NCBI GenBank assembly: GCA_043804695.1
Contig: JAZDIV010000152.1
Location: 1 to 32,562 of the forward strand
Direction: 5' to 3'
Source of the DNA: PVC group bacterium
GTDB taxonomy: Bacteria > Auribacterota > Erginobacteria > Erginobacterales > Erginobacteraceae
Length of the DNA: 32,562 bases
Within the stretch, counting starts at the first letter, position 1. Each line of letters starts with the position of its first letter. The notes below the pieces were generated by a model. It searched no databases. It was not told the DNA's origin and saw only the letters and a program-made list of their open reading frames with translations. The position numbers and the translations under genes are program-made. Positions 8,851 to 27,201 of the stretch are shown here, in pieces.

Positions 8851-8922
8851 GGCGAACGACAAAGCTCACTGGAAGGGATGGAGCGCAGCGGAATTGCCAA
8901 CCAGTAAAGCGCCTTGTTATAT
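8851..8922 (-). mobile_element. Integron attC recombination site
   Basis: Minus strand: R'' ATATAAC, 5-bp spacer, L'' GCTTTACT(GG), central loop, (CC)AGTGAGC L', 6-bp spacer, R' GTTCGCC; the L arms pair with one extrahelical base. Confidence 0.8.
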
Positions 8923-8974
8923 GCCTGCCTAATGCGCTATCCTTCTCGTGTATTTGAATAATCTTGCCATTTCT

Positions 8975-11900
8975 TCAAGTGGCATTTGCGGCTTTGGCCT
9001 CCTCCCGGATCTTCTCGTAGACCTCCTTGAGGAGGTGTTGGCTGACGGCCGCGCGGAACTGGTCCTCGTTCATGAACTTGGCCGTGATCTCCTCGTTCTG
9101 ATCCATTCGATCGATAAAGAGCCCCTCCAGGGCCTTGCGGAAGACATAGCCGAAGTTTTCCATCGTATTGGCGAGCGCGGCTTGACGAAGACTGCTGTCG
9201 GCTACGGCATCCTCTCGTATCGACTCGAAAAAGAGCTGATCGCCAGGCTTGAACTCCGTCCCAAATCGCTCGTTGAGAATGTCGATCAGTTTGGACAGCT
9301 CGATCTCATCACCTCGGGTGACACCGGTTCCCACTGACGTGGGCCCCGACACCTCATAGCGCGCGCCCGGTTCCATGACGATGGAACCCTCGCCGATCTT
9401 CTGCAATCGGTAAAACTTGAGCGCCACGTCATCGTCAAAGTTATAGATCGGACCCCGGTCGCCCCGGGGAAGTTTGGTAAGCAGAAACCGGATGTATGAG
9501 TACAGCTTCTCCAGGTCGGAGTCCTGGAAGGGAATCACCTGCGACATGAACGAATAGAGGTTTCTGAAAGCGACCAGTGTCTTGCGGAACTTCTCGCGGA
9601 CTTCTTCATCAAGATCATTGTATCTGCTTACCGCCGGATCGATGCAGGCGTTCATCCGGGCGTGGTCAGCGGGTGTTTGATTCCGTTTTGGTCTATAGAA
9701 GACCTTGCAGAATTCCTCGACCTCGGTCTGGTAGTAGACCTGATATCCGTCCAATTTGGCTTGAAGTTCATAAAGCTGTTTCGGCTCTGCCCGCTCGCCG
9801 ATGATCGTCTGCTCGTAGTAGGGCTGGAAGGCCTCTAATATCTCTTCGGGTTCATTGACGAAGTCGAGAACAAAGGTGTCTTCCTTGCCCTGATGGGTGC
9901 GGTTGAGCCTGGAGAGGGTTTGAACCGCCTGAAGTCCCGCCAGCCGCTTGTCCACGTACATGGTATGCAAAAGCGGCTGATCAAATCCGGTCTGGTATTT
10001 CTCCGCCACAAGAAGCACCTGGTACTCTTCCGTTCCATAGCGTTCGGGAAGCTCCTTCTCGCGGATGCCGTGGTTCATGCCGACTTCCGTGTATTCCACG
10101 CCGGGTGCGTCCGGATCGATCACCGTGCCGGAAAAAGCGACCAGCGTCTTGATCCCCGTGTACCCTTTCTTGGCGATGTACTTATCGAAAGACTGCTTGT
10201 ATCTGACCGCGTGGAGACGGCTGGAGGTGACCACCATCGCCTTGGCCTTTCCGCCGATCTTGTGCATGGTGAAGTGGCGGAAATGCTCGACCATGACCTC
10301 GGTCTTCTGGGCGATGTTGTGCGGGTGGAGACTCATGAAGCGGGCGAGCGCGCGGGCGGCTTTGCGCTTGTCCACCCGGGGATCGTCTTCGATGGACTTG
10401 ATCAGCCGATAGTAGGTCTTGTACGTGGTGTAATTTTGGAGAACGTCGAGGATGAAGCCCTCGTCAATGGCCTGCCGCATGGTGTAGAGATGGAAAGGCT
10501 GGGGCTTGCCGTCCCTGTCTGCCGTGCCGGCACAGGCAGGCGCTCCCGGAGTGCCGAAAACCTCCAGTGTCTTGTATTTGGGTGTCGCGGTGAAGGCGAA
10601 GAAACTGATGTTGGGCTGATGGCCGCGCTTGGCCATGGCCTTGAGGATTTCCTCTTCGTAGTCGGGCAGTCCTTCTTCCTCGGCTTTCGCCCGGGCCTCT
10701 TCCTTGATGGCGGCGCCGGCGAGCACGCCCTTCAGTTCGGTGGCCGTTTCGCCGCCCTGGGAACTGTGAGCCTCGTCAACCACCACCGCGTACCTGCGCA
10801 TGGGCAGATCGCTTATTTTCTCGGTAACGAAGGGGAACTTCTGGAGAGTCGTGATCACGATCGGCACGCCGGACCCGAGGGCTTCGGCCAACTGGGTCGA
10901 GTTGATATCGATTTTCCGGACCACGCCCTGCTTGTGCTCGAACTGGTAAATCGTGTTCTGGAGCTGCTGATCGAGTACCACCCGGTCCGTGACCACGATG
11001 ATCGAGTCGAAGATCTTCTCGTCATTGTCATTGTAAAGACTGGCGAGCCGATGGGCCAGCCAGGCGATGGAGTTGGACTTGCCGCTGCCGGCGGAATGTT
11101 GGACGAGGTAATTGGTTCCGGTTCCGCGTTCGCGAGCGTCGGCCACGAGTTTCCGCACGCAATCCAACTGGTGGTAGCGCGGAAAGATCATCGTCTCCCG
11201 CTTCACCTTCCTGCCGCCTGCCTGCGCCGTGCCTTGCGCGGCAGGCAGGCGGAACTGTTTCTCCTCGACTTGCAGATGGATGAACCTCGCCAGGATGTCG
11301 AGGAAGCTGTGCCGCTCCAGAACCTTTTCCCAAAGGTAAGCGGTCTTGTAGCCGTCGGGATTCTCCGGGTTGCCCGCCCCTGTCTGCGTGCCACGCACAG
11401 GCAGGCCGCCTCCGCGGCCCATGTTGAAGGGAAGAAAACAGGTGCCGCGGCCGGAAAGCCGTGTGGTCATATAGGCCTCGTCGGTGTCCACGGCGAAATG
11501 GATCAATGTACGCTTTTTGAACTGAAAGATCGGGTCCGCCGGGTCGCGGTCATTTTTGTATTGCGTGATCGCATGCCGCCAGGTCTGGGCGGTCATGGGG
11601 TTTTTGAGCTCCAGCGTGGATACGGGGATACCGTTCAGGGCCAGGGTCACATCGAGGGTATTGCCGCCTGCCTGTCGCGACGCGGCCGATAGTCGTCCCG
11701 CCGCGTATTCCCGCTTGAGCCATTGACGACCGAAACCGGTTTTCAGTTCGTCTTCCCGCTTGACGGCACTCTCGCGGGACTCGAATGCCTCCCAATGAAT
11801 GGGTTCCACAGGTAAGCGAGAAGCAGTCCATGTTACCTGCTTGGCGTGATGCTCACCAAGACGCCTTGGAAAGTTATCGGTTTGGCCAATGTAAAAGGAA

Positions 11901-12370
11901 TCATCTATACACTTCAAAACATAGATGCAGAACTCTCCTGCCTTTGGTCGCGGCGCAGGCAGGTGCTTGGCCGAGTAGCGGAGCTGGCGAATGATAGTGA
12001 GGCGATTGGCCGTGTAGAGCTTTTGGGTGTCCGGGTTCATTCCGCTCGCCGGTGCGAAGTAGGCCACGCGGAAGAGCTTGCCGAAGCATTTGAACCCATG
12101 CCGAAGGACGGTGAGGCATCCCTCGTGTTCGGAATTGAGCGCCCGGCAGAGGTCGTCCAGGAGTGTGGCCTCGGCCTTGTCCTTCTGGATGCCCGCAAGG
12201 TATTCCCATTCCCCGGGCTGGGTTGTCTGGATGAAAGAAATCACATCCCGCGGGAAGAGGCCGCGTTGCGGGTCGTAAGTGTCCCGGTCGCCCTTTTCGT
12301 AACCGCCTGCCGTGATCAGGTGGTGTTCGATGGCGGTCTCGAATGCGTGTTCGGTATGTTGGCCCGGCAT
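8975..12370 (-). CDS. hsdR: Type I restriction enzyme R subunit with in-frame insertions, including a GIY-YIG domain
   Basis: Nuclease motif LDVTLALNGIPVSTLELKN; Walker A QHSAGSGKS; VDEAHSSQ; FTATPK; QTGFDQP; QTLSRLNR. Start ATG 12370 (MPGQHTE) after GGAGG. Confidence 0.95.
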   Translation of the reverse strand: MPGQHTEHAFETAIEHHLITAGGYEKGDRDTYDPQRGLFPRDVISFIQTTQPGEWEYLAGIQKDKAEATLLDDLCRALNSEHEGCLTVLRHGFKCFGKLFRVAYFAPASGMNPDTQKLYTANRLTIIRQLRYSAKHLPAPRPKAGEFCIYVLKCIDDSFYIGQTDNFPRRLGEHHAKQVTWTASRLPVEPIHWEAFESRESAVKREDELKTGFGRQWLKREYAAGRLSAASRQAGGNTLDVTLALNGIPVSTLELKNPMTAQTWRHAITQYKNDRDPADPIFQFKKRTLIHFAVDTDEAYMTTRLSGRGTCFLPFNMGRGGGLPVRGTQTGAGNPENPDGYKTAYLWEKVLERHSFLDILARFIHLQVEEKQFRLPAAQGTAQAGGRKVKRETMIFPRYHQLDCVRKLVADARERGTGTNYLVQHSAGSGKSNSIAWLAHRLASLYNDNDEKIFDSIIVVTDRVVLDQQLQNTIYQFEHKQGVVRKIDINSTQLAEALGSGVPIVITTLQKFPFVTEKISDLPMRRYAVVVDEAHSSQGGETATELKGVLAGAAIKEEARAKAEEEGLPDYEEEILKAMAKRGHQPNISFFAFTATPKYKTLEVFGTPGAPACAGTADRDGKPQPFHLYTMRQAIDEGFILDVLQNYTTYKTYYRLIKSIEDDPRVDKRKAARALARFMSLHPHNIAQKTEVMVEHFRHFTMHKIGGKAKAMVVTSSRLHAVRYKQSFDKYIAKKGYTGIKTLVAFSGTVIDPDAPGVEYTEVGMNHGIREKELPERYGTEEYQVLLVAEKYQTGFDQPLLHTMYVDKRLAGLQAVQTLSRLNRTHQGKEDTFVLDFVNEPEEILEAFQPYYEQTIIGERAEPKQLYELQAKLDGYQVYYQTEVEEFCKVFYRPKRNQTPADHARMNACIDPAVSRYNDLDEEVREKFRKTLVAFRNLYSFMSQVIPFQDSDLEKLYSYIRFLLTKLPRGDRGPIYNFDDDVALKFYRLQKIGEGSIVMEPGARYEVSGPTSVGTGVTRGDEIELSKLIDILNERFGTEFKPGDQLFFESIREDAVADSSLRQAALANTMENFGYVFRKALEGLFIDRMDQNEEITAKFMNEDQFRAAVSQHLLKEVYEKIREEAKAANAT
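10514..10540. repeat. 27-bp in-frame palindromic element in hsdR (PACAGTADR)
   Basis: cctgtctg-ccgtgccggca-caggcagg. Confidence 0.9.
11217..11249. repeat. 33-bp in-frame palindromic element in hsdR (LPAAQGTAQAG)
   Basis: cctgcctg-cgccgtgccttgcgcgg-caggcagg. Confidence 0.9.
11379..11405. repeat. 27-bp in-frame palindromic element in hsdR (LPVRGTQTG)
   Basis: cctgtctg-cgtgccacgca-caggcagg. Confidence 0.9.
11667..11963 (-). mobile_element. 297-bp in-frame insertion in hsdR: GIY-YIG nuclease domain bracketed by two 27-bp palindromic elements
   Basis: Flanking units 11667-11693 (cctgcctg-N11-ccgatagt) and 11937-11963 (cctgcctt-N11-caggcagg). Core CIYVLKCIDDSFYIGQTDNFPRRLGEH...AVKREDELKTGFGRQWLK. 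Confidence 0.88.
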
Positions 12371-12461
12371 CAGGCATCCTCCGTTACAAGTCGTGTCGCC
12401 AGTTTGTCGCGAACTATGTCGCAATCCGTCGCGATTCTCTGTCGCGATATGTCGCGATAGT

Positions 12462-13556
12462 TCATAAGCCTTTACCTTTCAGTATATAAAGCGATTGCCT
12501 TGCCGCTCCCTTCCGCCCGACGAGACCCAGGTTTTCCATCTGCTGCAAATCCCGCTGGAGGGTTCGCCTGTTCATGCCAGGGCACAGGACCTCCATGTCC
12601 CGGATATGCATTTCGGCGTGGTCGAGAAGGAAACGCAGGGCCTTTGTCTGCCGCTCGTTCAACTTGTGTTGCCTGGCGATCAAGTCGGCCTTCATCGCCT
12701 TCTTGACGCATTCGGACACCTCGCCGAGCTGCGTGGCCAACCCATCGACGAAGTATTCGAGCCAGCCGGTCATGTCCATGCCGCGATCGCGCACGCCCTG
12801 GATCGCCGCATAGAACGCCGACCGGTCGCGGTCGTAATATTCGCTGATCGTGAACAGCCGCTTGAAATCGTACCCCGCCCGATACAGGCACAGCATCGAC
12901 AGCAGACGCGACGTCCGCCCGTTGCCGTCCAGGAACGGGTGGATGTGGACAAGCTGGAACTGTGCCACGCCGCTGACCAGGACCGGATGCACCCCTGCCT
13001 GCGCCGCGTCCCGCGCCGCGGCAGGCAGGTGGCCCGACCCGTTGAGCCAGGCCACCAGCTCCTTCATCAGCACCGGCACGTCATGGGCGGGCGGCGGGGT
13101 GTAGACCGTCTGGCCCGTGGCTGAGTTGACCACGTAGTTCTGCACCGTGCGGTATTGACCCGGGGCGCCCTTGCCGCCGCGCGCTCCCTCGACCAGCCGC
13201 TTGTGAATCTCGCGGACCAGTCCCTCGGTGATGGGTGCGCCGCTGTCGAGGTATTCAGAGACGAACTTGAACGCCCGGCGATAGTTCAGCAGCTCCCGCG
13301 CATCATCCGGGTCGGCCTCGGGCACCGGCTCGCCGGCCAGCAACCGCTCGGCCTGGTCCAGCGTCAGGTGCGTGCCCTCGATGTGCGTCGTGTGGTGGGC
13401 TTCGAGCACCAGCGCCCGCTCGCCCATCGCCCGCACCCAGTCTTCCGACAGCTTTGCCGCCTCCAGAAACCCCCGGGCGCGTTCGATCCGCGTCAACGCC
13501 GCCGTGATAACGTTGGTGATGGTGAACTTGGGCTGCAAGCCGCGCTTGGCCATCAT
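12462..13556 (-). CDS. Fic-family protein with C-terminal wHTH
   Basis: [12 protein letters not shown]ic motif; TTHIEG; C-terminal [15 protein letters not shown]. Confidence 0.93.
12994..13029. repeat. 36-bp in-frame palindromic element in fic ([12 protein letters not shown])
   Basis: cctgcctg-cgccgcgtcccgcgccgcgg-caggcagg. Confidence 0.9.
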
Positions 13557-14884
13557 GCCACCTCCCCGCGAACATCGATCTTGCCCGTCACCGCCGCAGA
13601 GATGAGGGCGGTGCGATATTCTCGCAGCGTTTCGATGGAATGATTGATCATCTCATCCAAGGCATCGATCCGCGCCGTCTCGCGGTCGAGGAATGCGGCG
13701 ATGGCTCGCTGCTCTTCTATGGAAGGCAGCGCAATGGGGATGTTCTCGATAACGTTCATGCCAATGTTCTGCTGGGTTCCGAAACTCCATCCGAGTTCAA
13801 TGGACTGGAAAAAATTCTTCGATTTCATGAAGAAAAATACAAACGGTGTAATGGCCTTCTTGGGGTCTGGTCTGATTGCAGCGAGCGGCGACCAGATGTT
13901 GAACTCATCATCGGTATCTACAAACGCCACGTTACCAGTGGTAGCTCCGGATTTGATCAAGTAGATGTCACCTTTAAGAGGCTTGTATTTCTTTGAGAAC
14001 CGAGCGTGATCTTCTGGCGAAATAAACCCTCGCATCTTTGCAAAATCAATCCTGTCATTCTTGATCGCTTCCGCAGAAATAAACGGGATACCCTCATCCA
14101 GTAGCTCGGGCGTTTCATGCGGGCCATCAGTTACTGGAACGATTGTAATCCTCTTTATGGCAATGACCTCCCAATGCTTCGGCACATCCCCCAGCCATTC
14201 GATGCCGGAGTCTTTCATCTTGGCATTGGGGTCGAGGCCTTTGGTGACGGCGTGGCTGATGAGAGCGGATCGCTTCTCCTGGAGGAGTTCTATCTGCCGC
14301 TGTTTCTTTTCGATCAGCCCATCAATCCGCGCCGTCTCGCGGTCCAGAAACGCTGCTATGGCACGTTGCTCATCGAGTGGAGGTGAAACCAAGTAGGTTG
14401 AGGTCAAGCAATCTCGGCTTAGTTCTGTGAATGTTGAGCCTTGCCCCAAAGATTGAAGTTTGGGACGTGCAGCGAAAAGCTGGTAGAAGAAGAAACGCCT
14501 GTCATCATCACCACGAAACACAAGGCTGCGACACCCCTGGTTCGTACACAAGCGGACACCCGCAATTACTAAATGCCCAATCGGTGCACGTGTAGACAGA
14601 ACAAGACTGCCCTCAGCAGCAAGAGTCACTCCACAACTTGCATAACCTTCCTGGGTAATCATCCGGCTCGTGACATCTAATGTTGATCCACGCAGATTGC
14701 CAAGATCATCTGGCGTTGCCCACGGAATGTCGCCATCCCAATATTCCGGATTACCACTTTTAGGCGTCGCGCCGTTGAGGGTTGTGAATGTTCGCTTCAG
14801 TGCCTTGATCTCCCACTGCTCGGGCACATCCCCCAGCCATTCCACGCACGATGGCCTATAATGCGGATATGCGCGGCGGCTCAT
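13553..14884 (-). CDS. hsdS: Type I restriction-modification specificity subunit
   Basis: Two TRDs; repeated conserved segments EWLGDVPxxW and [20 protein letters not shown]-terminal [14 protein letters not shown]. Confidence 0.95.
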
Positions 14885-16065
14885 GACTTGCCCCCTTTGG
14901 CAGGCCCTTTTTTCCTGCTCCTCGGTTTGGCGAGCTTCTTCCGGGCGTCCTCCGGGCGAACCGTCAAGTTTTTCTTGACGGTTGCCTTTGTGGTTGCCTC
15001 GCCTGCGTCATCGCCCCGATTCTCGATAGCCAATCGGGAACGCTCAATGGCCTCATGCAGTTTGCGTTTCAGAACATCCTTAGGAGGTAATACAGTCAAG
15101 TACTCGGCGACGTGGATGCCGGAACGGCCCAGTTCGAGCAGTTCAATCTGTTCGGCATTCTTGCCCGCGCAGAGGATAATGCCCAAGGGTGAATCTTCGC
15201 CCGGCTTGCGCTCGTGTCTGTCGAGCCAGCGCAGGTAAAGCTCCATCTGTCCCTTGTGATCGGGCCGGAACTTGTCGAGTTTGAGTTCCACAACCACCAG
15301 ACGCCTCAGATCGCGATGGAAAAAGAGCAGGTCCAGGTAAAAATCGTCATGATCCACGGTGATGCGTTTTTGCCGGGCGACAAAGGTGAATCCGATGCCC
15401 AACTCCATGATGAATGCTTCCAACTCGCGCAGGATGGCCGCTTCCAGATCTTTTTCCTGAAATGCTCCTTTGAGTCCGAGAAAGTCGAGCAAATAGGGAT
15501 CGCGGAACACCAGATCGGGAGTCATCCGATCTTCTTTCCGCAAGGCTTGCAGTTCCAGTTTCGCCAACTCGGCCGGTTTCTTGGAAAGGGCGGTGCGCTC
15601 GTACAGCATGGAACCGATCTTCTGCCGTAAGGTGCGGACGCTCCATCGTTCGACTCGACACATTTCTGCGTAGAAGTCGCGCTGTAAGGGGTCCTTGAGG
15701 GGGATCAGAGCGATGAAATGGGTCCAGCTCAATTCTCGTATCAGCGATACGACAATTCGCTCGTCGGGGAATACCTCGGCGAATTGAACCATGCGGCGGA
15801 GGTTTTTCTCTGCAAAGCTGCCACCATATTCGTGCGTCAATTCTTGTGACAGTGTGGCAAGAATCTGTTTCCCGTAATCGCCGCGCTTCCCCTTCAATAC
15901 GTCCTGATTGATCCTGCTGCCGATCCGCCAATGCAGCATGGTCAACCCGGCATTCACCGTGGCAGCCACGGCAGCCCGGGTTTCCTCGATCATTTGCCGG
16001 ATGTCGCCAAGCAATTGATTGGGGATTGCGGCCAAATCGGAAGGCTTTACCGGCTGTTCGTTCAT
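14881..16065 (-). CDS. YhcG/DUF1016 PD-(D/E)XK nuclease-domain protein
   Basis: Motifs LSWTHF, RDPYLLDFLGL, GFTFVARQKR, DLLFFHRDLRRLVVVELK, GQMELYL; start ATG 16065 (ATGA overlap). Confidence 0.92.
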   Translation of the reverse strand: MNEQPVKPSDLAAIPNQLLGDIRQMIEETRAAVAATVNAGLTMLHWRIGSRINQDVLKGKRGDYGKQILATLSQELTHEYGGSFAEKNLRRMVQFAEVFPDERIVVSLIRELSWTHFIALIPLKDPLQRDFYAEMCRVERWSVRTLRQKIGSMLYERTALSKKPAELAKLELQALRKEDRMTPDLVFRDPYLLDFLGLKGAFQEKDLEAAILRELEAFIMELGIGFTFVARQKRITVDHDDFYLDLLFFHRDLRRLVVVELKLDKFRPDHKGQMELYLRWLDRHERKPGEDSPLGIILCAGKNAEQIELLELGRSGIHVAEYLTVLPPKDVLKRKLHEAIERSRLAIENRGDDAGEATTKATVKKNLTVRPEDARKKLAKPRSRKKGPAKGGKS

Positions 16066-16274
16066 TCCGTGACCCCTGCTTGCCGCGCTTTGCTCGGCGC
16101 AGGCAAGTCCGCGAGCATGTCGGCGAGTTCCTGCTCGGTCTTCTTTAGATCGGTGCTGTATCTCAGGCGGCGAACCTCCCAATGAGTTGGTATATCACCC
16201 AGCCACTCGACTCCCGACGGCTTGTACGCCGGGTAGGTTGCTCGTTTGCTTGCTTTTGCGGCGGGGCGGCTCAC
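16062..16274 (-). pseudogene. Chimeric remnant: hsdS N-terminus fused to a duplicate of the hsdM C-terminus
   Basis: YPAYKPSGVEWLGDIPTHWEV (HsdS start) joined to TDLKKTEQELADMLADLPAPSKARQAGVTE (HsdM end); 16062-16154 matches 16828-16920. Confidence 0.85.
16075..16107. repeat. 33-bp palindromic element (duplicate of 16841-16873)
   Basis: cctgcttg-ccgcgctttgctcggcg-caggcaag. Confidence 0.85.
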
Positions 16275-16831
16275 GATTTGCCCCCTTTGCCGGACCTCTT
16301 TTCCCCGCCATTATTTCGGCTTTTGGGCGACTTCTTTTTCTTCGTCGGCTGTTTCTTGCCTGCCTGTGCGGCGCACGCAGACAGGCGCCGCGTCTCCAGC
16401 ATCTTTGCCGAAGTCCGCAGGTCTTCTATGTACCGCGCCTCGGCCTGGGCTTCCGCTTTCAGCCGCCGCCGTTCCGCGAAGGCGTCGTATTGTTCCTGCG
16501 CCCATTCGCAAGCATCGTCGCGTCTGACCGTGCCGGGGCCGGAAAGCACCGGCAATTCGGTGTCGCGCAGCCGCTGTACCGTGCGTGTCCCCTCCGGTCG
16601 AACTGACAAGAATTCCTTGTGAGTTGCCTCGGGAAGAAGTTCTTTTTCTTCGTATATGTTTTGGATGTGAAGACTTATGTTCTGCTGGGTCGTCTGGTAG
16701 AGCCCGGCCATGAGATTCTGCGTCAGCCAGACGGACTCATCCTGAAGCCGAACCTCAAGCCGGGTCTCGCCGGAATCGGATTGATAAATCAATATCCTGG
16801 TATCATCCGGTGCGGGTAAGTTCTTGCTCAT
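16271..16831 (-). pseudogene. RhuM-family protein with internal in-frame deletion
   Basis: RhuM N-terminus (ILIYQSDSGETRLEVRLQDESVWLTQ...NISLHIQNIYEEKEL) jumps at EGTRTVQR to a C-terminal-like segment; only 186 aa. Confidence 0.75.
16359..16385. repeat. 27-bp in-frame palindromic element in rhuM (LSACAAQAG)
   Basis: cctgcctg-tgcggcgcacg-cagacagg. Confidence 0.9.
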
Positions 16832-18966
16832 TCCGTCACCCCTGATTGCCGCGCTTTGCTCGGCGCAGGCAGGTCCGCGAGCATGTCGGCGATTTTCTGC
16901 TCGATCTTCTTGAGATCGGTCTCGATCTCCTCCAGCGGTCTTGGCGGGGTGTATTTGTAGAAGTAGCGGTTGAAGTTTACTTCGTAGCCGATTTTGGTCT
17001 TGGACTCGTCCACCCAGGCACTCGGAACGTGGGGTAAGACTTCCCTCTCCATATACTTGTCCACGTCTTCTTTGAGTGGAACGTTCTCGTAGTCGCGCAG
17101 TTCGGAATCGGGCTCTGGATTTCCATTAGCGTCGGTGCAGATCACGGCCGTTTCGTCTCGCTCAGCCAGGGCCAAAAGAATGGCCTTGAAGAGCGCGGCG
17201 GGAACAGTGATCCTGGTCTTTTTGAATGCGACCTTCATCTGTTTTGAGAACTCGTCGCGGTCTTTTACAATGTCAAGCGGCGTGAGGGTTTTCAGGGCGG
17301 CCAGGATTTCCTCTTGCTGCTGGCGGCCCGCTTCGATCTCAGATTGTGCGGCCCTGGTATCCTTTTGTTTCTTGCTGGCGGCCAGATTCGCAAAAGCCTT
17401 CGTCTCTTCAAGTCGCGCGATACGTTCGTTATCTACAGCAAAGTTGAGTCTGAGCGGCCGCTCGACCGTGATGCGGCGGTAGCCGAAATCCTCGTTATCA
17501 AAAACACGAATGTGCTCTGAATCCTTGAGATTCCCATAGAGCCTGGTGATCTCGTCGCGCTGATCGTCGCAAACTTCATTTCGCTTGTTGCCGAGGGATT
17601 TGCGCATCTTTTTGTAGAAGGTTGTTCCGTCCACCAGTTGAATCTTGCCCCTGCGCCCCGGTTCCTTGCGGTTGGTGATGATCCAGAGGTAGGTGTAGAT
17701 GCCCGTGTTATAGAAGAGTTGATCCGGCAGGGCGACAATGGCCTCCAGCCAATCGTTCTCGATGATCCAGCGGCGGATTTCACTCTCTCCCGACCCGGCC
17801 GCACCGGTAAAGAGCGGCGAGCCGTTGAAGACGATCCCAAGGCGGGTGCCTGCCTGCGCCGACCTGCCTGTCGCGTTTGCGACGCAGACAGGAGCTTCGG
17901 CAGGCAGGCCGCCTTCTTTTGGGCCCCTGCCTGCGCCGTGCTCGTCGCGGCAGGCAAGTTTCATCTTGCTGATCATGTGCTGGAGAAAAAGGAGCGAGCC
18001 GTCGTTGATTCGGGGCAGTCCCGCACCGAAACGTCCTCCGAAGCCCTGTTCCTCGTGTTCGCGCGTAATAAAGTCGGCTTCCGGTTTCCACTCCACACCG
18101 AAGGGCGGATTGGCCAGCATATAATCGAATTTGTGGCTGGGGAACCGGTCGTCGGTAAAACTGTCGCTAAAAGCAATATGATCAATGTCCTGGCCCTTGA
18201 TCATCATGTCCGAGCCGCAGATGGCGTAGGCTTGAGCGTTATAGTCCTGGCCGAAGACTTCCAGACGGGCGTCGGGGTTGAGTTCGCGCACGTAGTCCTC
18301 AGCCACGGACAACATGCCGCCCGTTCCGCAGGCCGGATCATAAAGGGTCCTTATGATTCCTTTGGTAGTAAGGATATCGCCGTCCGGCATAAAGAGGAGG
18401 TTCACCATCAGACGAATAACCTCGCGGGGAGTGAAGTGATCGCCGGCCTCCTCGTTCGATGCCTCGTTGAACCTCCGAATGAGTTCTTCGAAAATGTAGC
18501 CCATCTCAATGTTCGAGACGGCGTCCGGGTGCAAGTCGATATCACAGAACTTGGACACGACCAGATAGAGCCGGTCGGCCTTGTCCATTTTTGCGATGTG
18601 TTCCTCGAAGCCGAAGTTCTCGATGATCTCGCGGGCGCGTGTGGAGAAACCCTTGATGTAGTTGGTCAGATTGGCGGCGATGTTGTTCGGGTCGCCCTTG
18701 AGCTTTTCGAAGGTGAAGCGGCTGGTGTTATAGAAAGGCATACCCGTGACCCGGCAGAGAATGGGATCAATGTTCTTTACTTTGCCGCCCGAGAGCTTCC
18801 TCTGTTGTTCGAGGACCTTGTCCTTGGTGGGTTCCAGAACGCAGTCGAGCCGCCGCAGAACGGTCATGGGAAGCATGATGTCTTTGTACTGGTTTGGCCG
18901 GTAGGGTCCGCGAATAAGGTCGGCAACCGACCAAATGAAGCTAACTTTTTCGCCGAAGTTGTTCAT
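16828..18966 (-). CDS. hsdM: Type I restriction-modification N6-adenine methyltransferase with in-frame insertions
   Basis: AGDHFTPREV; motif I YDPACGTGG; motif IV LANPPFG; FNGSPLF; LFYNTGI. Confidence 0.96.
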   Translation of the reverse strand: MNNFGEKVSFIWSVADLIRGPYRPNQYKDIMLPMTVLRRLDCVLEPTKDKVLEQQRKLSGGKVKNIDPILCRVTGMPFYNTSRFTFEKLKGDPNNIAANLTNYIKGFSTRAREIIENFGFEEHIAKMDKADRLYLVVSKFCDIDLHPDAVSNIEMGYIFEELIRRFNEASNEEAGDHFTPREVIRLMVNLLFMPDGDILTTKGIIRTLYDPACGTGGMLSVAEDYVRELNPDARLEVFGQDYNAQAYAICGSDMMIKGQDIDHIAFSDSFTDDRFPSHKFDYMLANPPFGVEWKPEADFITREHEEQGFGGRFGAGLPRINDGSLLFLQHMISKMKLACRDEHGAGRGPKEGGLPAEAPVCVANATGRSAQAGTRLGIVFNGSPLFTGAAGSGESEIRRWIIENDWLEAIVALPDQLFYNTGIYTYLWIITNRKEPGRRGKIQLVDGTTFYKKMRKSLGNKRNEVCDDQRDEITRLYGNLKDSEHIRVFDNEDFGYRRITVERPLRLNFAVDNERIARLEETKAFANLAASKKQKDTRAAQSEIEAGRQQQEEILAALKTLTPLDIVKDRDEFSKQMKVAFKKTRITVPAALFKAILLALAERDETAVICTDANGNPEPDSELRDYENVPLKEDVDKYMEREVLPHVPSAWVDESKTKIGYEVNFNRYFYKYTPPRPLEEIETDLKKIEQKIADMLADLPAPSKARQSGVTE
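16841..16873. repeat. 33-bp in-frame palindromic element at the hsdM C-terminus (LPAPSKARQSG)
   Basis: cctgattg-ccgcgctttgctcggcg-caggcagg. Confidence 0.85.
17849..17908. repeat. Nested pair of 30-bp palindromic elements in hsdM
   Basis: Outer cctgcctg-cgccga^agcttcgg-caggcagg; inner (17863-17892) cctgcctg-tcgcgtttgcgacg-cagacagg. Confidence 0.9.
17926..17958. repeat. 33-bp in-frame palindromic element in hsdM (LACRDEHGAGR)
   Basis: cctgcctg-cgccgtgctcgtcgcgg-caggcaag. Confidence 0.88.
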
Positions 18967-19026
18967 GAATCCTCAATGCCAGATCATAATCAGCATCCGC
19001 GTTTGGTGTCCAAGCCGGTTCAGGGC

Positions 19027-19086
19027 ATATAACGAATAGTGTTTTATCCAATCGTGCGGAGCATGATGGAAAAAACACGGTTGAAC
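19027..19086 (-). mobile_element. Degenerate attC-like site upstream of hsdM
   Basis: Minus strand GTTCAAC (RYYYAAC), imperfect hairpin GTGTTTTTTCCATCATGC/GCACGATTGGATAAAACAC, then GTTATAT core. The left spacer is atypically short. Confidence 0.55.
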
Positions 19087-19225
19087 TGAGCCGCGCAAAC
19101 AAACGCAAAAAAAAGATTACCCGGCTATGGGTATTCTATTGGAAGTGGTGATGGCGGGCAAGAGCGAAGACGGCTTCCGGGCATTTGCTGGAAGGGGTGA
19201 AGAAGGCTCAGAATGAGCCCGAAAC

Positions 19226-24579: not shown

Positions 24580-25980
24580 ATGATGTTTTATCGACCGCTC
24601 AATGTCAGGCGAACTGTTTGTCTGCTGCTGTTCCTGGCCGGCATGTCATCCATTCCGTCGTCCGCCCCATCCGCGGATGACGGCGTCCCCGTCTCGGCGC
24701 GGAGCAGCTTCCCCACTTCGCCGTCGACCCCGACCGGGACGGTGCCGCCCCGAGAGTACCCACCGGCGGAGGGGAGTAGCGCCCGGGAAAAGGCCGAACA
24801 GGCCAGGCTGGAAGCCGACTCAGCCCTGAAGGAGGCCGAACTCCAGGAAAAGACGGTCGTGGTTGAAAAGAAGAAAGCCGCGGTGGAATTAAAGGAAGCG
24901 GAACTGGCCAGAGAAGAAGCCGAGGTCATACAGAAAGGTAATGCCAGCGAGGAGAAAATAAATGAGGCGATCGCCCGGGCCGAAAAAGAAATAGCGGAAG
25001 CCCGGATTGCCCGTGAAAAGGCCCGGATCGCTGAAGAAAAAATGGTCGCCGCCCAGGAGCAGGCAGAGCTGGCGGCGGGTGAACTGGAGCTGGCGCAAGA
25101 GCGGGCGGCCCTGGCGGAAGAGGAGAGCCGCGGCCAACAGAGCGCCCTCTATAGCAAGCTGATCAGGACCGGCCTGGTCCTGCTGATCGGGTATCTCCTG
25201 ATCTTCGCCCTGATCAAGATTATCAACACACATATCAAGGTTCTCCGGACGCAGCACCTGATCAGGAAGAACGTTATTTATTTTCTCAACCTCCTGATCA
25301 TCCTCCTGATTATCTTCATCTGGCTCCAGCACATCAGCTCCATCACCATCTTCATCAGCGCTGTCGGCGCCGGGGTGGCCCTGGCCCTCCAGGAGGTCAT
25401 CCTCTGCACGGCCGGCTGGCTGGTTATCCTGATGCGCCGCCCTTTCGAGGTGGGGGACCGGATCGAGTTCGGAGATGTCAAGGGAGATGTCATAGACATT
25501 CAAATCCTGCAGACTTCTCTCCTGGAGCTCGGCAACTGGGTGAATGCCGACCAGAGCACGGGGAGGATCGTCAACGTTCCCAACAGCGCCATCTTCAAGA
25601 AACCCACCTTCAACTACAGCCGGGGTTTTGAGTATATCTGGAACGAACTCAGGGTCCTGGTCACTTTCGAGAGCGACTGGAAACGGGCGGAGGAGATCAT
25701 GCTCCGTCACGCTGTTGCCCGGGCGGAGGGCATGGAGGAGATCGTCAAGAGAAAGATTAAAAGGATGTCCCGCAGGTACATGATCCATTACGGGAAGCTG
25801 ACGCCGATTGTCTATGTGAATATCAAGGACAGCGGGGTCGAACTCACGTTGAGATATCTGACCGACGCCAGGAAAAGGCGCTCCACCGAAGACGAATTCT
25901 CACGGAGAATCCTGGAGGACTTCGAGAAAGAGGAAAAGGTCAATTTCGCCTATCCGACGTACCGGATAGTGAAGGAATAA
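24580..25980 (+). CDS. MscS-family mechanosensitive channel with N-terminal coiled coil
   Basis: GAGVALALQE, RPFEVGDRIE, GDVIDI, QSTGRIVNVPNS, FAYPT. Confidence 0.9.
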   Translation: MMFYRPLNVRRTVCLLLFLAGMSSIPSSAPSADDGVPVSARSSFPTSPSTPTGTVPPREYPPAEGSSAREKAEQARLEADSALKEAELQEKTVVVEKKKAAVELKEAELAREEAEVIQKGNASEEKINEAIARAEKEIAEARIAREKARIAEEKMVAAQEQAELAAGELELAQERAALAEEESRGQQSALYSKLIRTGLVLLIGYLLIFALIKIINTHIKVLRTQHLIRKNVIYFLNLLIILLIIFIWLQHISSITIFISAVGAGVALALQEVILCTAGWLVILMRRPFEVGDRIEFGDVKGDVIDIQILQTSLLELGNWVNADQSTGRIVNVPNSAIFKKPTFNYSRGFEYIWNELRVLVTFESDWKRAEEIMLRHAVARAEGMEEIVKRKIKRMSRRYMIHYGKLTPIVYVNIKDSGVELTLRYLTDARKRRSTEDEFSRRILEDFEKEEKVNFAYPTYRIVKE

Positions 25981-26026
25981 TTGAATCGGGTTTTCACTGC
26001 GGTTCGAATACCTGAAAGGCAAGCGG

Positions 26027-27097
26027 ATGCCCGGGTTGAAGAGAAAAACAAGGAGAGTAAAGCAGGCCGGCCTTCCTCCCGGAACCCTGGTCTACGTCGG
26101 GGATAAGCAGGAAGAAGCGCCCCGGATCACCGTCATCGATTACGATGAATCGAAGTACCGGGAGGAAGAAGTCGCCGCCGTCGAGGACTGTTTCCCCTTT
26201 AAAGACCGGCCGACGGTAACCTGGATAAATATCGACGGACTGCGCCGGGTCTCGGTCATCGAACAGATAGGAAAGCACTTCGGTCTCCATCCCCTGGTCC
26301 TGGAGGATATCGTTAATACCTACCAGCGTCCGAAGATGGAGGACTTCGGCCAGTACATCTTCCTGGTGCTGAAGATGCTTTCCTATAACGATAAGGAAAA
26401 GGAAATAGTCATCGAGCAGGTCAGCCTGATCCTCGGCGCCGGCTTTGTTATCTCGTTCCAGGAGCAAGTCGGGGACGTATTCGATCCCATCAGGAAAAGG
26501 CTGAGGGAACAGAAAGGCCGGCTCAGGAAAGCGGGCGCCGACTACCTGGTCTATTCCCTGATCGACATGATCGTCGACAACTACTTCACTATACTGGAAA
26601 AACTGGGTGATCGCATAGAAGACCTGGAAGACGTACTGATCTCCCGGACCGGACCGAGATCCCTGCAGTTCATCCAGGGGTTAAAGAGAGAGCTGCTCCT
26701 GCTGAAGAAATCGGTCTGGCCGCTGAGAGAGGTGATCAGCGGCCTGGAAAGAGGCGAATCCCCGCTCATCTCCGACTCGACGGGAATCTACTTCCGGGAT
26801 GTGTACGACCACACCATCCAGGTCATCGACACCGTTGAGACCTACCGGGACATGGCCTCCGGGATGGTCGATACCTACCTCTCCGGCCTCAGCAATCGGA
26901 TGAACGAGGTGATGAAGGTGCTGACCATCATCGCCACCATCTTCATCCCCCTTACCTTCATTGCCGGCGTTTACGGAATGAACTTCCAGTACATGCCCGA
27001 ACTCAGGTGGCGCTGGGGATACCCGGCGGTTCTGAGCCTGATGCTCCTGGTCGTTCTCGGCATGCTCTCCTATTTCCGGCGGAAAAAGTGGCTTTAA
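26027..27097 (+). CDS. corA: Magnesium/cobalt transporter CorA
   Basis: GLPPGTLVYVG, LHPLVLEDI, QRPKME, YFRDVYDH, GVYGMNF.MPEL signature. Confidence 0.96.
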   Translation: MPGLKRKTRRVKQAGLPPGTLVYVGDKQEEAPRITVIDYDESKYREEEVAAVEDCFPFKDRPTVTWINIDGLRRVSVIEQIGKHFGLHPLVLEDIVNTYQRPKMEDFGQYIFLVLKMLSYNDKEKEIVIEQVSLILGAGFVISFQEQVGDVFDPIRKRLREQKGRLRKAGADYLVYSLIDMIVDNYFTILEKLGDRIEDLEDVLISRTGPRSLQFIQGLKRELLLLKKSVWPLREVISGLERGESPLISDSTGIYFRDVYDHTIQVIDTVETYRDMASGMVDTYLSGLSNRMNEVMKVLTIIATIFIPLTFIAGVYGMNFQYMPELRWRWGYPAVLSLMLLVVLGMLSYFRRKKWL

Positions 27098-27138
27098 CCT
27101 GATTTATGCCTGCCTGCCAGCAGGCATAAATCAGGTTA
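27095..27138. terminator. Perfect 19-bp-stem hairpin at the corA stop (terminator or REP-like)
   Basis: TAACCTGATTTATGCCTGC-ctgcca-GCAGGCATAAATCAGGTTA. Confidence 0.6.
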
Positions 27139-27201
27139 GCTTTGAACAATGACAACAAAGTGAGCTAAATAACGGCATTCTCCAATCGGAAGGAGAAATC
27201 T

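Follow-up and report, generated by a model that had tools for sequence, protein, structure and literature searches.

We examined a window of 32,562 nucleotides (nt), the entire contig C152 (JAZDIV010000152.1) of a PVC group bacterium whose assembly (GCA_043804695.1) comprises 155 contigs, 2.97 Mb and 57.8% GC. Its type I restriction-modification cluster, at 8975-18966, carries short palindromic insertions inside genes (hereafter miniatures) and a longer in-frame element encoding a GIY-YIG nuclease domain. Every gene of the cluster was on the minus strand:

8975-12424, minus strand: hsdR, type I restriction subunit (Pfam HSDR_N, SWI2_SNF2, ResIII, T1R_D3-like), with one full-length element and three miniatures
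12462-13556, minus strand: Fic-family gene (Pfam Fic and Fic_N; 364 amino acids), with one miniature
13553-14884, minus strand: hsdS
14881-16182 as listed, minus strand: yhcG-type PDDEXK gene, its true start probably the ATG near 16065
16271-16831, minus strand: rhuM-like open reading frame (ORF), matchless in Pfam and NCBIfam scans, with one miniature
16828-18966, minus strand: hsdM, type I methylase (Pfam N6_Mtase and HsdM_N; 712 amino acids), with four miniatures at three sites

Nine independent miniatures, one of them nested in another, and one full-length element were identified. The strict pattern CCTGYCTG-N(4-30)-CAGRCAGG had seven matches in the window and none in 100 dinucleotide-preserving shuffles. 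Two types could be told apart. A-type miniatures (30-39 bp) consist of the left end of the nuclease element, 4-13 loop bases and its right end, while B-type miniatures (27-30 bp) have the form CCTGTCTGCGTGC-N-GCACGCACAGGCAGG or close variants and recur in many other loci. A previous, sequence-only reading of this DNA had counted twelve short copies. All 12 places do bear the motif or a decayed version of it, but two of them (11667 and 11937) mark the opposite ends of a single 297-bp element and a third (16075) belongs to a duplicated piece of hsdM. The lengths of the true window miniatures are 27, 30, 33 or 36 bp and thus always a multiple of three (3n), as had been stated. The insertions were as follows:

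10514-10540, minus strand: miniature, 27 bp, B-type, adding PACAGTADR to HsdR (strict motif, translation and empty homologs)
11217-11249, minus strand: miniature, 33 bp, A-type, adding RLPAAQGTAQA to HsdR (empty homologs)
11379-11405, minus strand: miniature, 27 bp, B-type, adding GLPVRGTQT to HsdR (empty homologs)
11667-11963, minus strand: full-length in-frame element, 297 bp (99 codons), Pfam PF01541, absent from HsdR homologs 90-92% identical
12994-13029, minus strand: miniature, 36 bp, A-type, adding 12 residues directly before the HPV... segment of Fic
16075-16107, minus strand: decayed 33-bp copy, not independent, within the ~85-bp duplicate of the hsdM 3′ end at 16063-16150 (compare 16829-16916)
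16359-16385, minus strand: miniature, 27 bp, B-type, giving RLSACAAQAG-type residues in the rhuM-like ORF (motif and translation only)
16841-16873, minus strand: miniature, 33 bp, A-type, forward orientation, right end decayed (CAATCAGG), splitting the GAG codon of ...LAEVTE-stop in HsdM
17849-17908, minus strand: nested pair in hsdM, the outer 30-bp A-type copy being 17849-17862 plus 17893-17908 and the inner 30-bp B-type copy, at its centre, 17863-17892
17926-17958, minus strand: miniature, 33 bp, A-type, adding LACRDEHGAGR to HsdM, between K336 and the DPKEGG loop

The full-length element interrupts a His codon of hsdR after its second base. Its peptide reads LPAPRPKAG-[GIY-YIG]-AGRLSAASRQAG; on the coding strand it starts with CCTGCCTGCGCCGCGA and ends with CGCGACAGGCAGG. 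The GIY-YIG domain corresponded to HsdR residues 165-231 (8.6e-12, 45.6 bits against a cut-off of 22.6). The core residues of GIY-YIG nucleases are the Tyr of both half-motifs, an Arg, a His or Tyr and a Glu. Y14, Y24, G26, R34, H38, E58 and E70 were invariant in all 11 aligned elements, the window copy included (alignment A2). The profile of this alignment matched the UPF0213 structures 1ywl (1.6e-15) and 1zg2 (1e-14), followed by Slx1 chains. NCBIfam held no family for the element peptide, and by tblastn the hsdR-borne element was the only copy in this genome. The insertion at 11963 (HsdR residues ~150-260) lies four residues before the Asp of the PD-(D/E)xK nuclease motif (GNTLD...ELK), so that HsdR has a second nuclease fold beside its own active site.

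The element had no start codon, conserved Met, stop codon or promoter of its own, and would thus be made only as an in-frame insert (LPAPRPG...RQAG) of its host protein. Free-standing GIY-YIG relatives matched only profile positions ~7-85; the LPAP... and ...RQAG stretches are therefore translated repeats outside the fold. With one genome scanned for each species, 142 loci were confirmed, of which 80 were kept for locus analyses. Among the 62 of these whose match spans the whole element, 53 began with CCTGCCTGC(GCCGCG) and 57 ended with (CGCGG)CAGGCAGG. This also held in loci of 26-40% GC, and the ends are therefore under constraint as DNA, beyond that on the peptide. They form imperfect terminal inverted repeats of ~13 nt, CCTGCCTGCGCCGCG ... 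CGCGGCAGGCAGG, abutting a domain of ~80 residues for a total of ~280-300 bp. An intein or self-splicing intron was considered and rejected: the Pfam matches of HsdR included no intein or Hint family, and an Rfam scan of 8900-19100 gave no family at gathering score.

With high confidence, the miniatures and the nuclease element have common ends. Miniature 11217, for instance, reads on the plus strand as a left repeat CCTGCCTGCGCCG, 7 nt and a right repeat CGCGGCAGGCAGG. We suggest, with a probability of roughly 0.7, that the short palindromes derive, as non-autonomous miniature forms, from a GIY-YIG mobile element that lives in frame within ORFs and has no promoter. The sequence-only reading had missed this putative autonomous partner, which lies with the same termini in hsdR of the same operon.

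The miniatures could instead be immobile scars, left by full elements after deletion of the interior between the ends. An A-type copy is indeed two ends plus a few bases, copy 16841 has the orientation and phase of the full element, and the HsdR homolog P0308 has LPAPQSGAKRQAG exactly where the window's HsdR has its full element. However, of the 15 A-type copies that could be oriented, 13 run against the host frame, and the full element is not readable through in that direction. Other copies stand in phases that the nuclease frame does not use, copies are nested in one another, and one 30-mer occupies three sites in a single genome. The B-type consensus is unlike the ends of the full element and recurs at many sites in unrelated genomes, some copies being identical to those of the window. 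We consider the scar explanation unlikely and retain derivation from a mobile nuclease element.

Evidence for insertion came from homologous sites. Close homologs of HsdM, HsdR and Fic (84-92% identical) lacked every insertion. HsdM has 712 amino acids here and 670 in most of its 120 best homologs, the extra 11 + 20 + 11 residues aligning exactly at the palindromes. HsdR has 1131 amino acids here, in a frame of 1149, against ~1000-1003 in homologs, with all four inserts absent at 90-92% identity, and Fic has 364 against 351-352, an 86% identical homolog showing a 12-residue gap at the insert. The SKMK-DPKEGG-TRL site of HsdM was empty in all 63 readable metagenome loci. Excision thus yields native sequence, as had been predicted, and the empty homologous sites support the earlier view that a short mobile palindrome was inserted, lengthening the protein by 9-12 residues. 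Exact junctions were compared at the DNA level for two sites. At 16841, compared with five empty loci, GCG GAG GTG became GCG GA-[33 nt]-G GTG; at 17849, GGC GGC ACC of empty loci became GGC GG-[30 nt holding another 30 nt]-C ACC. Neither site shows a duplicated or missing base, in line with the reported lack of a target-site duplication.

Presence or absence was polymorphic at single sites among close HsdM and HsdR homologs, a trait also of inteins and introns with a homing endonuclease. P0281 has the identical PACAGTADR peptide at the HsdR site of 10514, where the remaining homologs are empty. P0021 carries a related insert at the HsdM site of 16841, and P0002 and P0003 have the 17926 insert too (PACRDxHGAGR). 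Because these insertions are common to homologs of other organisms, they are old. Further short in-frame inserts were seen in the HsdM homologs P0006, P0026, P0045, P0021 and P0074 (alignment A1), with ‘MMNAECGMM’-type peptides and ‘TRLPDGQ’. These may represent other coding-repeat families and are known from protein only.

The only public DNA run listed as sharing words with the locus (run X1; share 0.08; compared at 85% likeness) represents relatives only and not this organism, and no RNA run was listed. Four inserts were skipped in relatives' contigs from this run; one contig skips 10487-10554, which spans miniature 10514, and in a relative's contig 9 letters stand in place of 12993-13039, around miniature 12994. 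An assembly in 155 contigs, with a public run of relatives only, leaves some room for an assembly or sequencing artefact at GC-rich hairpins. We give this almost no credence, as the same ends and 3n lengths occur in independent NCBI, JGI, ENA and Logan assemblies and in the genome of a cultured isolate. On the sequence comparisons, the palindromes are with high confidence true insertions.

The miniatures were then compared with the distribution of the nuclease element. In the 80 loci selected for the nuclease element (710,619 bases) there were 33 miniatures, spread over 17 loci and 29 of them 3n, and 20 shuffles of this set gave 0-1 each. In 80 metagenome loci chosen for HsdM only (895,029 bases) the same pattern found none and a looser one found two doubtful copies; the two sets come from different collections, species genomes and metagenome contigs, which tempers the contrast. 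A tblastn search for GIY-YIG in the HsdM-chosen loci found none. In the whole genomes of five carriers, each with 1-2 embedded nuclease elements, there were 67 (genome G001), 29 (genome G002), 3, 8 and 4 copies, and a reversed-pattern control found 0. In the present genome the 27-36 bp types were confined to the restriction locus, and all nine miniatures lie in one operon with the only embedded nuclease. In G001, 20 of the 67 copies were on two nuclease-bearing contigs that make up ~2% of the genome. A 12-kb Deltaproteobacteria stretch (L040, the same as G001:C8; G001:C1) held 13 miniatures, several nested, around an embedded nuclease and was denser than the window.

Several copies recur between genomes. 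Miniature 11379 is identical to G001:C1:30358, which lies within an HsdM gene of an unrelated genome. The outer copy at 17849 is identical to G002:C80:12415-12444, the inner copy at 17863 differs by 1 nt from G002:C31:771-800, and 17926 differs by 2 nt from G001:C134:5522. One 30-mer was found at three places in G001 and also in L021, and nested copies occurred in the window and in L040. A Pfam scan of 12 of the 15 miniature-bearing ORFs of at least 100 amino acids in G001 and G002 gave HsdS, HsdM (two), N6_N4 methylase (two), TaqI_C, PLD+SNF2 helicase (two) and UvrD, and three had no family. Our confidence that the nuclease mobilises the miniatures is moderate.

The host genome has related repeats of its own. 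It contains ~250 AT-rich hairpins of the form AACCCGATTTAT-loop-ATAAATCGGGTT, often followed by GTTTTGAACAATG, and ~35 of them have in the loop a 14-24 bp GC palindrome (GCCTGCC...GGCAGGC) with the same 8-nt ends. The window's own AT-rich hairpin (27096-27140) stands directly after the stop codon of CorA. A second repeat, GTCATTGCGA-[GC hairpin]-GAAGCAATC, is distinct from the AT-rich hairpins and has ~239 copies in the genome. Several of its units flank a free-standing GIY-YIG ORF of ~90 amino acids (25974-26195) in G000:C27:25800-26500, an arrangement that resembles the NTS-ssnA-NTS layout depicted in the Ssn paper (PMC11893778). The host lineage is thus familiar with such systems, which is no proof that the 27-36 bp coding copies arose here. 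Intergenic hairpins of 19-20 bp, which occur in this genome and in its relatives, had been tried as proof of a native element and were rejected: they have the 8-nt ends in common with the miniatures, but belong to another size class and context. In G001 (L175-L180) a 20-bp form, CCTGCCTGCCGGCAGGCAGG, was central in another repeated sequence of ~90 bp, with ctttacgctcagtta before and tgctcgagtttgag after it, which suggests that this form rides in, or entered, a larger repeat family.

Such repeats bear on a different explanation, in which another enzyme, a free-standing Ssn-like GIY-YIG protein or one of IS200/RAYT type, moves the palindromes, and the nuclease domain is cargo that landed in the loop of a miniature. 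Insertion into a palindrome centre is seen in the nested copy 17863 and in the GC palindromes within the loops of AT-rich hairpins, the genome has a free-standing GIY-YIG ORF with repeats of its own on either side, and the 19-20 bp class is common in relatives that have no embedded element. Yet the ends directly abut the nuclease frame and are kept with it across phyla, miniatures cluster on nuclease-bearing contigs, and the 895 kb without an embedded element held 0 miniatures against 33 in the 710 kb with one. We rate cargo status for the domain as improbable, on a par with the scar explanation, and continue to favour the nuclease as the source of the miniatures. The sequence-only reading had also proposed that the copies accumulated in a previous host. 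This is plausible: insertions common to other organisms' homologs and the restriction of the 27-36 bp types to one locus of a 2.97-Mb genome speak for it, but local spread from the hsdR-borne nuclease fits equally well.

Reading frames were surveyed with 98 distinct copies from this genome and the fetched loci, by the longest open frame spanning each copy. Copies in frames of at least 200 codons were mostly 3n (56 of 62), against 3 of 8 in frames of 100-199 codons and 8 of 28 in frames below 100 codons, although size class differs as well (coding 27-39 bp, non-coding 19-21 bp), so that the 3n contrast is no clean test of selection. The six non-3n copies in long frames include partial matches of nested pairs. 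No stop was found in any of the six frames of 86 of the 98 copies. The counts agree with the proposed selection for 3n length. The further claim of only two reading phases is correct for this window, whereas all three codon phases occur in other genomes. Permissive loop positions had been predicted too, and this was consistent with an AlphaFold model of a 312-residue HsdM piece (residues 148-459; 72 alignment rows; mean predicted local distance difference test score, pLDDT, 78.3; predicted template modelling score 0.81). The three central HsdM inserts fall in one predicted coil (model 186-227; pLDDT<50 for 193-222) between helix 176-185 and strand 228-234. A model of whole HsdM from 19 near-identical rows had a mean pLDDT of 40 and was discarded.

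As single-stranded DNA (ssDNA) the copies had predicted folding energies of -6 to -16 kcal/mol, with -13.7 kcal/mol for the hairpin of 11217. The same hairpin form, with a 2-nt bulge in the 3′ arm, was on the coding strand in 30 of 35 orientable miniatures, a bias consistent with a one-strand mechanism. The coding strand is exposed in transcription and is the lagging-strand template for co-oriented genes.

These properties could also be expected of functional host features, be they flexible surface loops, an additional nuclease domain that modulates the restriction enzyme, or mRNA hairpins regulating the operon. The inserts are in frame, stop-free and tolerated, they form stable hairpins, and some are common to diverged homologs. 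Most close homologs do without them, however, and Rfam offers no matching family. The same sequences recur across proteins of no common kind (for the full form, ArgRS, TrmD, QueC, trigger factor and ribonucleotide reductase among others); the ends are conserved as DNA in AT-rich genomes, while several window copies have decayed ends. A host function is thus very unlikely, and a mobile origin remains our preferred reading.

A search of 1.84 billion protein representatives with a 100-residue segment gave 3503 matches at E<=1e-3, of which 269 reached E<=1e-10. Almost all of the top 150 relatives were internal to longer proteins, and in 91 of these 150 the ends LP[AGSV]...Q[AST]G lay 80-115 residues apart, one of them as a chance match elsewhere in the protein. 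Host families were determined by Pfam scan for 87 of the first 113 matches, the 26 short ones being left out:

49 of 87: HsdS (Methylase_S)
13 of 87: other restriction, defence or DNA enzymes (HsdR, type III Mod, Eco57I, DUF1156, DUF559, NOV_C, PDDEXK_1, SNF2, Fic)
8 of 87: housekeeping and other proteins (RluA-type pseudouridine synthase in two, trigger factor, QueC, TrmD, ArgRS, ribonucleotide reductase, DUF899)
17 of 87: GIY-YIG only, with no further family

In P0074, an HsdM homolog, the element occupies a further site. Hosts of elements and miniatures are mostly restriction or defence genes. The 80 loci came from Nitrospirota, Thermodesulfobacteriota, Verrucomicrobiota, Planctomycetota, Bacteroidota, candidate-phyla-radiation groups, Omnitrophota and Acidobacteriota, as well as Clostridia, Actinomycetes and Proteobacteria, with one record labelled as an archaeon. 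One of them is from a cultured isolate, Pleomorphovibrio marinus SW125, whose HsdR is the host protein. Judged from these matches, the sequence-only reading missed a spread over many phyla and a strong tie to restriction and defence genes. The element peptide had no match at E<=1e-10 among PLSDB plasmids and INPHARED phages, and IMG/VR gave only six distant GIY-YIG relatives without the element ends; a phage or plasmid vehicle is thus unsupported.

The copy at 16075 and the genes around it reflect rearrangement of the cluster. The 3′ end of hsdM is duplicated 5′ of yhcG (16063-16290 compared with 16829-16916 and 14770-14900), and a degenerate stretch like the 5′ end of hsdS follows. The 16063-16150 duplicate is near identical to 16806-16916 across the common part, and 16075 was therefore copied together with its surroundings. 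It lies upstream of the likely yhcG start. The earlier statement that yhcG carries no copy needs qualification to this extent, as 16075 falls in the upstream extension of the ORF as listed. The rhuM-like and yhcG ORFs have a common C-terminal tail (...GKGGKS). It seems that additional genes entered the interval from hsdM to hsdS by way of repeated junction sequences. The neighbours of the cluster are ordinary chromosomal genes (efflux OEP/HlyD, deoxyhypusine synthase, MscS, CorA), the GC content is 52-61% in the restriction locus and 62-69% in the nearest flanks, and a tRNA scan of the window found none.

Among known systems, REP/REPIN repeats with RAYT, like IS200/IS605, depend on a single-copy enzyme that acts on ssDNA hairpins without target duplication. 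The present family likewise has short hairpin repeats multiplied by a single-copy, here putative, enzyme. REP repeats are extragenic, however, and RAYT is an HUH tyrosine transposase able to rejoin DNA, whereas these repeats are intragenic and the candidate enzyme is a GIY-YIG hydrolase. Classical MITEs (miniature transposable elements with inverted repeats) also have terminal inverted repeats in common with a longer coding element and occur as many short copies. The miniatures differ from them in being far smaller, in lacking a target-site duplication (two sites) and in having no DDE transposase.

Rickettsia palindromic elements (RPEs) are summarised in a MITE review (PMC10969869) as palindromic repeats in frame in unrelated coding genes, their peptides being thought compatible with the fold. 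This is also the placement of the miniatures described here. RPEs are ~100-150 bp long, are not known outside Rickettsia and relatives and are not known to have an enzyme; the present copies are 27-39 bp, occur in many phyla, are biased to restriction and defence genes and have ends in common with a nuclease-coding form. A GIY-YIG domain inside a type I R subunit has one precedent in the HsdR MCA0838 (Dunin-Horkawicz et al. 2006, PMC1564403), whose internal Slx1-like domain is absent from an 80% identical homolog and was judged a recent insertion. In the passages on it MCA0838 figures as a single case of domain insertion, without mention of terminal repeats, other hosts, miniatures or mobility. 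The ‘ShiLan domain’ (PMC11855218) is an in-frame, stop-free insert in a phage DNA methylase; it is not an intein or an intron, and it is associated with a homing nuclease. It resembles the present element as a stop-free insert, in the host frame, of a DNA methylase gene, but its nuclease is of HNH type, in another frame than the host and with its own start and stop, and the abstract of that article describes no terminal palindromes or miniatures.

The closest parallel is Ssn (Chenal et al. 2025, PMC11893778). As set out in the article's account, Ssn proteins are single-domain GIY-YIG proteins of 94 amino acids bracketed by hairpin repeats (NTS/SRM), further copies of which are scattered over the genome; in ssDNA only, the proteins bind the repeat and cut next to it, on one strand, and the authors note an insertion-sequence-like gene layout. 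In both systems a small single-domain GIY-YIG protein lies between inverted ends (53-57 of 62 here) and has dispersed copies (9 here, 67 in G001, 29 in G002). Ssn genes as described there are free-standing and their repeats intergenic, whereas here the nuclease is read within a host protein, the repeats abut its frame, and the copies stand in frame inside genes. The words ‘in-frame’, ‘fusion’ and ‘inserted’ are absent from the main text on Ssn (PMC11893778). The nearest structures of the present domain are UPF0213 proteins. In a full-text literature search, which covered few subscription journals and no supplements, no in-frame GIY-YIG element with inverted ends or miniatures was described. 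Our preferred reading is that these are mobile in-frame palindromes of a new variety, for which a nuclease partner can be identified.

By analogy with Ssn, the nuclease would recognise the hairpin formed by the paired ends on ssDNA and would cut at the hairpin base of a full or miniature element. Both forms could in this way be mobilised, nearby by preference, with the joints sealed by host repair. Copies that break frame or fold would then be purged by selection, and horizontal transfer of restriction-modification loci would carry the elements between phyla. Our confidence in such a single-strand mechanism is low to moderate.

Several observations weigh against derivation from, and mobilisation by, the nuclease, beyond the differing collections and size classes noted above. 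Every link between nuclease and miniatures is, on present sequence data, a correlation. To our knowledge a hydrolytic GIY-YIG enzyme cannot rejoin DNA alone, and the integration step has no known precedent. Target preference was weak, roughly GR|YG at 30 B-type sites and none clear at 23 A-type sites, too little for a target rule. The B-type copies of the window were two sense and two antisense, so that the orientation bias was not seen locally, and the window's own sample is not represented in run X1, only its relatives. The P0308 miniature exactly at the site of our full element indicates that some miniatures may arise by internal deletion in place. Finally, 12 of 14 genomes from the host's order have 19-20 bp hairpins with the same 8-nt ends, and the GIY-YIG genes found there were free-standing, apart from one embedded copy. 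This short intergenic class could be a repeat of the ordinary kind, or one on which a different enzyme acts.

A more ambitious picture, to which we give slightly less than an even chance, is that of a ‘domain parasite’. It would consist of ~13-nt inverted ends and an ~80-residue GIY-YIG domain only, be expressed only in frame in a host gene and spawn coding miniatures of 27-39 bp. Acting on ssDNA hairpins near its own gene, it would have colonised restriction and defence genes, and occasionally housekeeping genes, of many bacterial phyla and at least one contig recorded as archaeal, reshaping proteins as it spread.

If true, coding palindromes in frame would gain a candidate mobilising enzyme and a testable mechanism; they have been known in Rickettsia for 25 years, with no enzyme to account for them. 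Hairpin-specific nucleases of Ssn type would extend from free-standing genes to elements inside proteins, and the nuclease could be a useful reagent, if hairpin- and strand-specific. There would be consequences for annotation too, as GIY-YIG ‘fusions’ of HsdS, HsdM and HsdR would be parasites and not designed architectures. For protein evolution, the elements would show one way in which loops and entire domains are added to proteins, and their strong tie to restriction and defence genes would raise the question of whether they modulate or sabotage defence systems.

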